DNA from: a virus
Taxonomy: Duplodnaviria; Heunggongvirae; Uroviricota; Caudoviricetes
Virus record (IMG/VR): IMGVR_UViG_2636416140_000002
DNA length: 9,612 nt
Direction: 5' to 3' (one strand)
This document shows, piece by piece, positions 1-9,612 of this stretch. Each line of letters opens with the position of its first letter. Positions within the stretch are counted from its first letter, which is position 1. Both the position numbers and the translations under genes were made by a program. The notes below the pieces were generated by a model. It searched no databases, had not been told where the DNA came from, and was given only the letters and a program-made list of their open reading frames with translations.

Positions 1-533
1 GAAAAACCAGAGATAAGACAGCGCCAAAATATAAAGCGTTAGACATGACAGAGCTTTCCCTAAAGGTGGCAATCAGAACGATAGACCGACACGTAGGGGA
101 AGGATACGCGAAGGAACATCCCGACCTGATAAGCGCATTCATGACCACAGCAGCGGCAAACTTTGCCACGCTGACAGAACGGGAGATTGCCGAAGCGGAA
201 CAGGTAACAACCATCAACGTTAAAACCGGAGAGGTGGAATCATGAGCGAACCAAAATTTGGTGAAAAACTTTACAAGCACAACGGACGGATCACGATTCA
301 GCAAATAAGCGCAGCTACACCAGGCTGGTGGGTTGAAACAGACGAAGGATCATCAACCGTGGCATCATGGGCGCTTTGTGTGCTTAGTTACCCTGACCGC
401 GATGTGTATCAGGATATTCTGCCTGTGATATCCACTGACAAAGGCATGAAACCCGTAGACATCAAAAACATGGGTTTTCAGTGCGTAATGCTCACTGAAA
501 AAATGATGGAAGAGATGAAAAAGAATAACGCCG
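1..533 (+). repeat. Direct repeat copy 1, apparently identical to 716-1248; truncated by the window start
   Basis: Read directly: 1-533 matches 716-1248 base for base (offset 715). Identity ends at 533/534 in copy 1 and 1248/1249 in copy 2. The repeat may extend upstream of the window. Confidence 0.9.
45..245 (+). CDS. Hypothetical small protein (66 aa from ATG 45), copy 1; frame is open to the window start, so the true start may lie upstream
   Basis: ORF with decent codon usage; its stop overlaps the next ORF's start (ATGA at 242-245), suggesting translational coupling. Identical second copy at 760-960. No recognisable family. Confidence 0.5.
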   Translation: MTELSLKVAIRTIDRHVGEGYAKEHPDLISAFMTTAAANFATLTEREIAEAEQVTTINVKTGEVES

Positions 534-712
534 TGGGGAATTTAACAAAATTGAAACATAATTACCCACTTTCCCACCTGTATATACCCAAAAAAGTGGG
601 GAGTAAAAAATATATTGAAAAACATCACGTTAGAATCACCAAAAAAAGAGGTGGGGAGACGGTGGGTAATTTCAAAAAGTGGGGAGCAAAAGTGGGGAGT
701 AGTGGGGAATGA
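242..712 (+). CDS. Hypothetical protein, duplicated copy 1; first 97 codons identical to 957-1262, then reads through into the iteron region (probable chimeric C-terminus created by the duplication junction)
   Basis: ORF track 156 aa. C-terminal part is encoded by GTGGGGA repeats and A-tracts (VG/KK-rich translation), which looks non-native. Copy 2 ends 3 codons after the divergence point. Confidence 0.4.
   Translation: MSEPKFGEKLYKHNGRITIQQISAATPGWWVETDEGSSTVASWALCVLSYPDRDVYQDILPVISTDKGMKPVDIKNMGFQCVMLTEKMMEEMKKNNAVGNLTKLKHNYPLSHLYIPKKVGSKKYIEKHHVRITKKRGGETVGNFKKWGAKVGSSGE
533..711. repeat. Iteron-like array: at least 7 direct (A)GTGGGGA(G) repeats plus inverted half-sites (CCCACTTT, CCCACC), separated by A-tracts and an AT-rich core; putative replication origin
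   Basis: Direct GTGGGGA copies at about 533-539, 595-603, 651-658, 679-687, 691-699, 701-708 and variant GTGGGT at 662-667; inverted copies at 565-578; AT-rich stretch 541-650. Confidence 0.6.
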
Positions 713-960
713 ACAGAAAAACCAGAGATAAGACAGCGCCAAAATATAAAGCGTTAGACATGACAGAGCTTTCCCTAAAGGTGGCAATCAGAACGATAGA
801 CCGACACGTAGGGGAAGGATACGCGAAGGAACATCCCGACCTGATAAGCGCATTCATGACCACAGCAGCGGCAAACTTTGCCACGCTGACAGAACGGGAG
901 ATTGCCGAAGCGGAACAGGTAACAACCATCAACGTTAAAACCGGAGAGGTGGAATCATGA
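709..960 (+). CDS. Hypothetical small protein, copy 2 (83 aa from ATG 709; 66 aa if the start is ATG 760)
   Basis: Identical to the 45-245 ORF over the shared part. ATG 709 lies inside the last iteron with GGGGAG about 9 nt upstream; ATG 760 has no obvious SD. Stop overlaps the next start (ATGA). Confidence 0.5.
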   Translation: MNRKTRDKTAPKYKALDMTELSLKVAIRTIDRHVGEGYAKEHPDLISAFMTTAAANFATLTEREIAEAEQVTTINVKTGEVES

Positions 961-1248
961 GCGAACCAAAATTTGGTGAAAAACTTTACAAGCACAACGG
1001 ACGGATCACGATTCAGCAAATAAGCGCAGCTACACCAGGCTGGTGGGTTGAAACAGACGAAGGATCATCAACCGTGGCATCATGGGCGCTTTGTGTGCTT
1101 AGTTACCCTGACCGCGATGTGTATCAGGATATTCTGCCTGTGATATCCACTGACAAAGGCATGAAACCCGTAGACATCAAAAACATGGGTTTTCAGTGCG
1201 TAATGCTCACTGAAAAAATGATGGAAGAGATGAAAAAGAATAACGCCG
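716..1248 (+). repeat. Direct repeat copy 2 (identical to 1-533)
   Basis: See copy 1. The 715-bp period equals the 533-bp block plus the 182-bp iteron region, consistent with a tandem duplication of an iteron-plus-gene unit. Confidence 0.9.
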
Positions 1249-1271: not shown

Positions 1272-1682
1272 ATGACAGCACAAATTGCAGCTTACGGGCG
1301 GCTGGTGGCTGACCCGCAGTTAAAGACCACCAGCAAGGGTACACAAATGACGATGGCGAGTATGGCGGCCCCCCTTCCGTGCAGCCAGGCAGATGACGGA
1401 ACGGCGACGATGTGGTTATCCGTCCTGGCATTTGGCAGACAGGCCGAATCACTGGCAAGGCACCGCAAGGGTGAACTCCTGACCGTGGCGGGTAACATGC
1501 AGATCAGCCAGTGGACCGGACAGAACGGGGAAACGCGGCAGGGTTATCAGGTTATTGCAGACAGCGTAATCAGTGCCCGTGCGGCACGTCCTGGCGGGAA
1601 CAGACGCAAAACCACAGGCACACAGGGTAATCAGCCACCAGCGGGAGACGATGACCCCTACGGTGATGATATTCCGTTCTGA
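1272..1682 (+). CDS. ssb: Single-stranded DNA-binding protein (SSB, OB-fold) of mobile-element type
   Basis: SD GAGGTGG at 1261-1267. OB-fold-like core (WLSVLAFGRQAESLARHRKGELLTVAGNMQISQWTGQNGETRQGYQVIADSV), Gly/Gln/Pro-rich linker and canonical acidic C-terminal tip DDDPYGDDIPF (compare E. coli SSB ending DDDIPF). Confidence 0.88.
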   Translation: MTAQIAAYGRLVADPQLKTTSKGTQMTMASMAAPLPCSQADDGTATMWLSVLAFGRQAESLARHRKGELLTVAGNMQISQWTGQNGETRQGYQVIADSVISARAARPGGNRRKTTGTQGNQPPAGDDDPYGDDIPF

Positions 1683-6854: not shown

Positions 6855-8499
6855 GTACGCAGAAGACGTAAAAACGGGCAAAATTCCGGCCTGTAAACGG
6901 CTGAAACAGGCCGTTAAACGGTACTTTTCGGACCTTAAAAGCCCCCTTTACACGTTCGATCGTGAGGTTGTGGAGCGGTTTATTGCCTTTTCCAGGGTGT
7001 GCCCGCACGTAAAAGGACCGATGCGTGGCAGACCCATTGAGCTGGAGCCGTGGCAGCAGTTCGCCTTTGCGTGCATCCTCGGCTTTAAGGTTAAGGCCAC
7101 CGGACGGCGCAAATACACGAGCGCCTTTATCGAAGTGCCGCGCAAAAATGCGAAATCCACGACCGCCGCGATTCTGGCTAACTGGTTTCTGATTATGGAG
7201 AACGGTCAGCAGGATATCTACACCGCAGCGGTGAGCCGTGACCAGGCGCGGATCGTCTTTGATGATGCGCGTCAGATGTGCCTTTTATCCCGACCGTTAC
7301 GCAGGCGGGTGAATATTCAGGCGCATAAGGTGATACACCCGAAAAGCAACAGCCTGTTAAAGCCGCTGGCAGCAAAAGCGGCAACCATCGAGGGAACAAA
7401 CCCAAGCCTTTCCATCGTGGACGAATACCACTTGCACCCCGATAACGGCGTTTATTCCGCGCTTGAGCTGGGGATGGGCGCACGTCCCGAAGGGCTGTTA
7501 TTTGCCATTACCACATCAGGCAGCAACGTCGTTTCAGCCTGTAAACAGCACTATGATTATTGCTGCCAGATCCTGGACGGCGAAGAGGTTAACGATTCAA
7601 TTTTTGTACTGATTTACGAACTGGACGACGAAAACGAGGTTGATGATCCGGCGATGTGGATAAAGGCGAACCCTAATATTGATGTTTCCGTCGATCGTGA
7701 AAAACTGGCCTCAACCATCCAGAAAGCGCGGGGTATTCCGTCGCAGTGGGTGGAGATGATGACAAAGCGATTTAATATCTGGTGCCAGGGGGCTACCCCG
7801 TGGATGGGTAACGGCGCATGGGCTGAGTGTGCCGGAACGTTCACGGAGGAAGATTTACACGGCCAGGAGTGTTACGCGGGGCTGGACTTATCATCAACCA
7901 GCGATATTTCCAGCGTGTGCTATGCCTTTCCGGTCGGTAAAACCATTATGCTGGTTTCCCGTCACTATCTGCCGGAATTTCAGCTACAGAACCCCGCCAA
8001 TAAAAACCGCGCCATCTATCGTCAGTGGGCTAAAGCAGGCTGGATACGCACAACGCCTGGCGACTGCATTGATTACGACCGGATCAGAGATGACATCATG
8101 CAGGACGCGGAGAAATTTAATATCAGGCTGGTGGGCTTTGATACGTGGAACGCCACGCATCTCAGAACGCAATTACAGGGGGCAGGTTTTGAGGTGGAGC
8201 CGTTCCCGCAAACCTACCTCAGATTCAGTCCGGCGGCGAAATCGTTCGAAGTTTTTGTTAACCGCAGGGTGATTGTGCATCGTGGCGATCCGGTGTTGTC
8301 CTGGTCGATGAGTAACGTCGTGATGCAGAGTGACGCGAACGCCAATATCAAGCCGAACAAGAAAAAATCACCGAACAAGATAGACCCGAGCGTGGCGGCG
8401 CTGATGGCGTTTGGTACATTCCAGGCAGAGCATGAGGATTTTGCTTTTGATATAAGCGACAGCCACCGCCAGAAACTGGAAGAATTTAGCGGGGTGTAA
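6838..8499 (+). CDS. terL: Terminase large subunit (ATPase and nuclease)
   Basis: 553 aa. TTG start with GAGGA SD 5 nt upstream, overlapping the terS 3' end. N-terminus AWNKYAEDVKTGKIPACKRLKQAV and ATPase region are typical of large terminases; acidic residues in the C-terminal nuclease part. Confidence 0.93.
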   Translation: MTAWNKYAEDVKTGKIPACKRLKQAVKRYFSDLKSPLYTFDREVVERFIAFSRVCPHVKGPMRGRPIELEPWQQFAFACILGFKVKATGRRKYTSAFIEVPRKNAKSTTAAILANWFLIMENGQQDIYTAAVSRDQARIVFDDARQMCLLSRPLRRRVNIQAHKVIHPKSNSLLKPLAAKAATIEGTNPSLSIVDEYHLHPDNGVYSALELGMGARPEGLLFAITTSGSNVVSACKQHYDYCCQILDGEEVNDSIFVLIYELDDENEVDDPAMWIKANPNIDVSVDREKLASTIQKARGIPSQWVEMMTKRFNIWCQGATPWMGNGAWAECAGTFTEEDLHGQECYAGLDLSSTSDISSVCYAFPVGKTIMLVSRHYLPEFQLQNPANKNRAIYRQWAKAGWIRTTPGDCIDYDRIRDDIMQDAEKFNIRLVGFDTWNATHLRTQLQGAGFEVEPFPQTYLRFSPAAKSFEVFVNRRVIVHRGDPVLSWSMSNVVMQSDANANIKPNKKKSPNKIDPSVAALMAFGTFQAEHEDFAFDISDSHRQKLEEFSGV

Positions 8500-9157: not shown

Positions 9158-9301
9158 TATCAGTGGCAACCATAACGACTTTCGTTACGGTTGATGCTTT
9201 TACCCCATTGGGGGAAAGGTATTACGATAATCATAACACCTACCGAACAGGTAAAGCCCACCAGCCTGATTAACGTTTAACCGGAAAAAAATTCCGGTAG
9301 G

Positions 9302-9313: not shown

Positions 9314-9381
9314 TATCGACATTAACGCCCCTCATGAATTGGTGTGCTTCCCCCTGGAAAGATGATCCGCCTGTATATTTC

Positions 9382-9407
9382 TTGTGTCTATTTGTTCCAC
9401 GTTGTTT
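9382..9407 (+). promoter_or_regulatory. Second copy of the 10-bp-phased TTGTKY triplet, including the exact 15-mer TTGTTCCACGTTGTT (9392-9406) shared with 2025-2039
   Basis: Hexamers at 9382 (TTGTGT), 9392 (TTGTTC) and 9402 (TTGTTT). Confidence 0.45.
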
Positions 9408-9446: not shown

Positions 9447-9492
9447 TTTTGCGATTTTTGGCACTTTTTGCGGTGTTAATTATTTAATTAAA

Positions 9493-9612
9493 TCAATGTG
9501 TTATGCGAAATAAGTTATATATAACAGCAATAAATAATGCGAGAATAAACGGCACGATGATCTCGGCGGCAAAACGGATACCGCAGAGAATAATGACCAG
9601 CATTCCCAACAT
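9493..9612 (-). CDS. 3' end of a minus-strand ORF encoding a hydrophobic (membrane) segment; ATG sits exactly at the window edge, so it is either a complete 39-aa small membrane protein or the C-terminus of a longer flanking gene
   Basis: Reverse-strand translation [39 protein letters not shown], stop at 9493-9495. GC-rich third positions in the first 20 codons suggest real coding. Not in the ORF track because it is under 60 aa within the window. Confidence 0.4.

Follow-up and report, generated by a model that had tools for sequence, protein, structure and literature searches.

Phage-inducible chromosomal islands (PICIs) have their origin directly 3′ of the replication gene (PMC6092414), and the rep-ori segment of EcCICFT073 drives plasmid replication that depends on both Rep and ori (PMC6092414; Fillol-Salom et al., 2018). 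The Rep proteins of Staphylococcus aureus pathogenicity islands (SaPIs) bind short repeated sites, the iterons, through a C-terminal winged helix and load themselves (PMC9371898). Here we describe an iteron array at positions 533–715 of a 9,612-base stretch of DNA (the window, taken at its full length), which is the entire draft contig ANAN01000208.1 of assembly GCA_000815945.1, with position 1 at the contig end. The window is the right-hand part of an Escherichia coli capsid-forming PICI (cf-PICI) inserted in tqsA, and we put the probability that 533–715 is the vegetative replication origin of this island at roughly 85%. The position of the array 3′ of the initiator gene repA in complete islands, a layout conserved among relatives, and the covariation of the iteron core with a domain of RepA all agree with an origin of the iteron type, which an earlier note on this DNA had proposed from the letters alone. 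By position, layout and allele specificity, the array belongs to the known PICI type of origin, and such an origin is an ordinary feature of these islands.

Like the pri-rep-ori region of EcCICFT073, the locus belongs to an island of an E. coli host with the PICI layout, has its origin 3′ of an allelic rep gene, and places two iteron sets around AT-rich DNA. Unlike EcCICFT073, the island is capsid-forming, and its initiator is a RepA-family helicase (AAA_25) and not a primase-type Pri-Rep. The GTGGGGA iteron sequence does not occur in the text of PMC6092414, the origin drawings in Fig. 2a of that paper standing outside this comparison. The SaPI origins are also similar in build, with 6–12 short iterons directly past rep and a central AT-rich stretch; in SaPIs the iterons on the two sides of the melting region face opposite ways (PMC9371898). 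The gene order of the island is that described for cf-PICI EcCIEDL933, in a paper that makes no mention of iterons or of an origin (10.1101/2022.09.08.507074).

Exact copies of GTGGGGA occur nine times in the contig, compared with 1.34 expected and a maximum of five in 200 shuffles, and six of the nine lie inside 533–708, at 533, 596, 651, 679, 692 and 702. Since only about 0.06 exact copies are expected in 183 bases (estimated from the three exact copies outside the block), six copies are far beyond chance. With up to one mismatch allowed, a direct copy at 662 (GTGGGTA) and the inverted copies TACCCAC and TTCCCAC join them, and at this threshold 9 of the 37 sites of the contig are packed into the 176 bases of the array. 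The repeat unit is 7–12 bp long, its longer form being AAAAGTGGGGAG, and the spacing is 10–17 bp. The elements that the earlier note had listed, namely at least seven direct repeats, inverted half-sites and an AT-rich core, are thus all present: seven direct GTGGG(G/T)A copies within 533–708 (the six exact ones and that at 662), two inverted copies within 563–577, and a GC content of 25–28% over about 580–649. The array also contains two 25-bp duplex stretches (540–564 and approximately 600–624) that rank among the three least stable in the contig. The iterons form two sets flanking AT-rich DNA, the left set at 533, 563 (minus strand), 571 (minus strand) and 596 and the right set at 651–708 (Table 1). 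Around the palindrome GTATATAC the iterons are opposed, with 563 and 571 inverted and all copies from 596 onward direct; around the spacer at 603–647 they are direct on both sides. Neither a DnaA box nor an integration host factor (IHF) consensus was found within one mismatch (the DnaA box scan covering 480–760), and an Rfam search of 1–1400 at E values up to 1 gave no RNA family.

In complete genomes, the array is placed by computation immediately 3′ of repA, and it starts at the repA stop codon in seven islands (L001, L003, L004 and L087–L090). In NZ_CP028112 (L001), the 183 bases of the array fall after the repA stop (11975) and before the gene that follows (12178), and are identical to the window except for a C-to-AA change in the A-tract at window position 640. 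They start 25 nucleotides (nt) past the repA stop, and those 25 nt contain two more iterons, TAA-AAAGTGGGGAGTAAAAGTGGGGAGA, while the next gene begins at the last iteron. Eight of the ten exact GTGGGGA copies in this 24.8-kb locus fall in the origin. The left half of the array is present in at least 241 of 5426 complete E. coli genomes. Strains of E. coli often harbour several related islands, with up to six places per genome that match the first 1300 bases of the contig. The earlier note had looked for the initiator either upstream or among the small open reading frames (ORFs). The upstream part holds for the island, where the initiator is repA; in the contig no initiator is visible because the contig starts downstream of repA.

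The layout is conserved well beyond E. coli. We surveyed by computation 80 loci of RepA relatives with 52–72% identity in Enterobacterales, including Xenorhabdus, Pantoea, Kosakonia, Pectobacterium, Serratia, Morganella, Citrobacter and others. In most of these loci, the top 7-mer 3′ of repA beats every control window from the same locus, typically with 7–13 sites versus control maxima of mostly 6–9. The order past the repA stop is also the same in most loci: two or three direct iterons, an inverted iteron, a (G)TATATA(C) centre, a direct iteron, a spacer, and four or five direct iterons. An inverted pair of 7-mers (up to one mismatch) with TATA in its spacer is found in 68 of the 80 loci, and in the majority of these its arms are the local iteron, whatever the core of that iteron may be. 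Homologous arrays differ from each other by 1-nt indels and by coordinated changes, in which the same base is altered in every repeat. Within E. coli, three RepA alleles are 94–97% identical and differ mainly within their last 60 residues; they share the same array layout, and their iterons are GTGGGGA, GTGGG(C/A/T) and GTGAGG. Furthermore, unrelated GGTAGA(C/T)A iterons occupy the same place in an island that has a primase-type rep but otherwise matches the window at about 98% identity from 717 on; the array thus follows rep rather than the packaging genes. A separate conserved element, roughly CCGCGCCATTACTGG, occurs in the origin spacer of several other iteron types (6865–6890 in the primase-type locus L002, approximately 2725–2750 in L090, and also L029, L031, L033 and L039); it is absent from the AT-rich spacer of the window.

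The iteron core follows a single residue of RepA. Residue x of the motif K-x-F-x-R-W was compared with base 4 of GTGNG in loci with at least four GTGNG sites. Base 4 is G where x is H (10/10 loci) or K (29/30), A where x is N (25/25), and C where x is S (7/7) or, in a single locus (1/1), G; altogether, the K-x-F residue and the core go together in this way in 72 of 73 informative loci, as computed from sequences. Pairing of asparagine with adenine and of histidine or lysine with guanine is a common recognition pattern. Four further loci (L087–L090) were fetched once this residue-to-base rule had been formed. Two of them fit it, L087 with KHF (64% identical overall) and GTGGGGA iterons, and L089 with KNM and GTGAG; L090 has KGF, a residue for which there was no prior prediction, together with GTGCG, like the KSF group; L088 fits in part and is taken up below. 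At least two independent switches between H and N can be distinguished, one within the domain type of E. coli and another that separates Xenorhabdus from the Pantoea/Kluyvera group. The rule is a testable specificity rule, possibly a route to orthogonal small replicons, and together with the conserved palindrome it makes a modest, directly testable addition to what is described for such islands. Allele-specific initiator-origin pairs would let related islands that reside in the same cell replicate independently, and a code of nearly one residue to one base, if it holds, could explain the coexistence of many mutually compatible satellites per cell.

RepA is a 465-residue protein annotated as a helicase RepA family protein. 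Its predicted parts are an N-terminal domain, a motor of the RecA type (AAA_25) and, at the C terminus, a winged helix. The motor (residues 147–320) has a weak sequence match to RSF1010 RepA (1g8y, E 0.013), the only solved structure found. The last ~65 residues are modelled as three helices and a β-hairpin, with a predicted local distance difference test (pLDDT) score of 84–91 over approximately 405–466 in the full-length run and a mean of 81 when modelled alone, and K-x-F stands at the N-terminal end of the third helix of this model. The best fold matches of the domain are all winged-helix proteins (OhrR, MepR, SelB, DtxR, and the winged helices of MCM and Rpa2). The C terminus is therefore predicted to be a winged helix, with the third helix as its recognition helix. 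Pfam searches with the C-terminal 72 and N-terminal 148 residues gave insignificant matches only (NACHT, 0.13; MCM5_C, 0.18). A fold search with the full-length model was discarded, its top matches being meaningless and the RecA-type proteins T7 gp4, KaiC and RadA appearing only at weak scores, and the model was used for the C-terminal domain only. Since the N-terminal ~130 residues of the RepA-type (L001, 10578–10970) and primase-type (L002, 4924–5320) initiators belong to one family, as seen from phrog_2850/phrog_864 cross-hits, the initiator alleles share an N-terminal module and differ in their motor and DNA-binding parts.

These features suggest how the origin would work. Once the island is induced, the winged helix of RepA would bind the (AAAA)GTGGGGA(G) iterons, and RepA on the inverted copies at 563–577 and on the direct copy at 596 would face each other across GTATATAC. 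RepA would assemble there, with the five direct repeats of the right-hand set recruiting more protein. The AT-rich DNA (540–562, 580–587 and 603–647) would then melt, the RecA-type helicase would load itself without DnaA or a separate loader, and the single-stranded DNA-binding protein (SSB) of the island, encoded just downstream, may coat the opened strands. The palindrome at 580–587 is the best-conserved candidate for the site of first melting or of helicase loading. Such an origin sets where, and with which initiator, the satellite replicates after induction by a helper phage.

SaPI Reps are AAA+ proteins that move 3′ to 5′. The RepA motor is unlike theirs, being RecA-like (AAA_25) and weakly similar to RSF1010 RepA, and the SaPI Reps indeed form a different helicase class (PMC9371898). 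What RepA would share with SaPI Rep, by analogy, is a C-terminal winged helix for origin specificity and independence of a separate loader or DnaA (PMC9371898). The resemblance to the SaPIs is one of architecture, probably convergent or modular. The iteron origins of the plasmids pPS10, R6K, RK2 and F resemble the array in their direct repeats, winged-helix initiator, AT-rich unwinding element and allele-specific match of initiator and origin. Plasmid iterons are, however, ~17–22 bp long, usually come with DnaA boxes, and need DnaB to be recruited, whereas the array has repeats of 7–12 bp, no DnaA box, and an initiator that carries a helicase motor itself; the array thus lacks both the 17–22 bp iterons and the DnaA boxes that define the plasmid type. 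The weak likeness to RepA of RSF1010 (IncQ) is confined to motor residues 147–320. The iterons of RSF1010 are bound by a separate protein, RepC, whereas in the island RepA the DNA-binding domain is fused to the helicase. Opposed short sites flanking an easily melted centre are also seen in the origins of SV40 large T antigen and papillomavirus E1, on which two helicase rings would come together head to head. A comparable head-to-head model was proposed for SaPI Rep (PMC9371898). For the island RepA origin the likeness to the viral origins would be functional, by analogy, with no homology.

Several points weigh against an origin at 533–715. In the contig, the array has no adjacent initiator gene and two iterons fewer than in complete islands, and for these reasons this copy of the origin might be impaired. 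We infer binding, melting and replication from PICI and SaPI replicons that have been tested, and self-loading is an analogy and not a homology, because the RecA/superfamily 4 (SF4)-like AAA_25 motor is unlike the helicase type of SaPI Rep. The winged-helix fold matches are weak (E 0.09–0.3, as expected for a domain of 69 residues), and the full-length RepA model is poor, with a predicted template modelling (pTM) score of 0.42. The loci counted for the covariation are not independent of one another in their phylogeny; the K class forms a single clade, and so does the S class. Finally, the Salmonella locus L088 (2601–2810) combines a KNF RepA with mixed GTGAG and GTGGG iterons, so that it fits the rule only partly, as its sole partial exception; it may be a recombinant or decaying origin.

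Binding by RepA could also serve transcription, the array being mainly an operator for repA or for the downstream operon (the 83-aa ORF, the 101-aa ORF, ssb and perC), without origin function. Plasmid iteron initiators often autoregulate, the last iteron overlaps the start codon of the 83-aa ORF, and the covariation with the winged helix speaks for RepA binding but not for its purpose. However, the array lies 3′ and not 5′ of repA, no GTGGGGA cluster is found near the regulatory region of the island, and a scan of 400–1300 detected neither a σ70-like promoter nor a terminator. Conserved AT-rich stretches, and a TATATA palindrome with sites that face each other on its two sides, are features of origins, and the equivalent region of EcCICFT073 is required for replication (PMC6092414). 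We consider an operator in place of an origin improbable, while binding of a regulator may be a second role of the array beside that of origin.

Terminases can bind short motifs that are repeated close to AT-rich DNA, and the earlier note had itself raised the possibility that the array is part of a packaging signal (cos or pac), which would act here with the small terminase of the island. This proposal has fared badly and appears very improbable: islands with ~98% matching capsid, HNH, terS and terL genes carry a different rep and unrelated iterons that change with it, the repeat core tracks the RepA residue, and the array is ~5.8 kb from terS, the packaging genes of cf-PICIs being hnh-terS-terL (10.1101/2022.09.08.507074). 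Hardly credible at all is that the array codes for protein, either as the C-terminal third of the 156-aa ORF at 242–712, which was picked by a gene caller, or in the minus-strand ORF at 542–787, although both frames are open across it. The ORF at 242–712 depends on a duplication junction (described below), is recorded from one contig only and has no family match, the stretch is intergenic in complete genomes, and the 1-nt indels and repeat-wide base changes of homologous arrays argue against translation. Translation of this region with conservation at the protein level in homologous elements, which the earlier note had named as the outcome that would speak against an origin, was looked for and not found. 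Together, because the iteron core tracks the RepA residue and the array changes with rep, the data support the replication origin and do not support packaging or coding. The 'plasmid' record pD17EC0246-3 (CP088587.1, L086), which covers 92% of the window, was also considered. It contains a primase-type cf-PICI flanked by the chromosomal genes pntB, mdtJI, mlc and clcB; it is probably a mis-assigned chromosomal fragment and, as such, no evidence for an episome.

Table 1. Features of the iteron array and of the DNA on either side of it (window coordinates).
Feature	Position	Strand	Remarks
Upstream copy of the duplicated block	1–533	+	Partial 83-aa ORF (1–245) and 5′ part of the 101-aa ORF
Chimeric 156-aa ORF	242–712	+	5′ part of the 101-aa ORF, continued past the junction and over the iterons
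Novel junction, ...AATAACGCC joined to GTGGGGAATTT	532/533		1 nt (G) of microhomology; replaces the repA stop codon and two iterons
Direct iteron GTGGGGA	533–539	+	Third iteron of the native left set
First AT-rich spacer	540–562		dG −24.8 at 540–564 versus a contig mean of −34.7
Two inverted iterons, TACCCAC (563–569) and TTCCCAC (571–577)	563–577	−	Position conserved in relatives
Palindrome GTATATAC	580–587		Centred between the inverted pair and the direct copy at 596; conserved
Direct iteron AAAAGTGGGGAG	596–602	+	
Main AT-rich spacer with A-tracts	603–647		GC 25–28%
Right-hand set of five direct iterons (651, 662 [GTGGGTA], 679, 692, 702)	651–708	+	Centre-to-centre distance 10–17 nt
83-aa ORF	709–960	+	First gene past the origin; phrog_1231, function unknown; ATG overlaps the last iteron
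Downstream copy of the duplicated block, native context	716–1248	+	Continues into the end of the 101-aa ORF, then ssb
ssb	1272–1682		After the end of the 101-aa ORF

The contig encodes ssb, perC, an HK97-type capsid protein, protease, portal, head closure and connector proteins, HNH, terS and terL, followed by tqsA, and no tail genes are present among the window genes before tqsA. The left module, seen in complete islands (L001, L003 and L004), consists of int, alpA, icd-like genes, a DUF4222 gene and repA. The islands thus have what characterises cf-PICIs, a left int/alpA/rep-ori part with their own capsid, protease, portal, connectors and hnh-terS-terL, and lack tail genes. In complete genomes they sit in tqsA or between roxA and phoQ.

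Two features at the left end of the contig had been overlooked in the earlier note. The array is flanked by perfect direct repeats, 1–533 and 716–1248, with no mismatch over 533 nt and a period of 715, and it is truncated on the left, the two leftmost iterons AAAAGTGGGGAGTAAAAGTGGGGAGA, which precede position 533 in complete genomes, being lost. NZ_CP028112 has no duplication, and the junction is absent from all 5426 complete E. coli genomes as well as from the species-representative genomes, viral contigs and metagenome contigs searched. Because the first copy of the 101-aa ORF crosses the junction, the frame at 242–712 stays open across the array; this ORF, called in the public assembly and recorded in one contig only, is a junction product and not a conserved gene. 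For annotation, this means that 242–712 should not be listed as a gene and that the start of the draft contig needs checking.

The flanking repeats reflect either a recent tandem duplication of a 715-base unit (the origin and two genes) or an assembly error. We see the chances as evenly balanced that the draft genome was misassembled here, in which case the real chromosome would carry the block only once, together with repA and the full origin. The repeat stands at the very start of the contig, and this start is within 1 nt of the point (window 717) where islands with other rep-origin modules begin to match; a contig start at such a module boundary is expected for a break at a repeat that two islands of the same strain have in common. 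Both copies match perfectly and no other record has the junction, but a recent tandem duplication would equally yield identical copies and a unique junction. Moreover, a graph assembler needs junction-carrying reads to join the two sides, and since these share one base only, some reads must carry the junction. Template switching at an active origin could yield a fresh 715-base tandem duplication of this kind, which breaks precisely where the third iteron starts. A broader proposal is rather doubtful in our view: that the block-origin-block arrangement is real, the template having been switched at the third iteron while Rep drove replication, so that the 715-base unit was duplicated in tandem or exists as a small circle with the origin on it, and, separately, that RepA and iteron pair by a near one-residue/one-base code. 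If the arrangement is real, satellite origins would be able to amplify their own flanks in place.

Some further repeats and structures were noted elsewhere in the contig. An 18-nt hairpin at 2116–2165 (94% complementary, with a 14-nt loop) lies ~50–90 bases upstream of the capsid gene and is possibly a regulatory element or a terminator in front of the morphogenesis genes. Two direct copies of a 35-nt repeat, 77% identical and sharing TTGTTCCACGTTGTT, are found at 2005–2039, upstream of the capsid gene, and at 9372–9406, near the right end of the island. The arms of a perfect 18-nt inverted repeat, ATCAGGCTGGTGGGCTTT (8122–8139) and AAAGCCCACCAGCCTGAT (9253–9270), are 1113 bases apart, one in terL and the other near the island right end. 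The least stable DNA of the whole contig is at 9462–9552, at the boundary between the island and tqsA, where the attachment site is expected.

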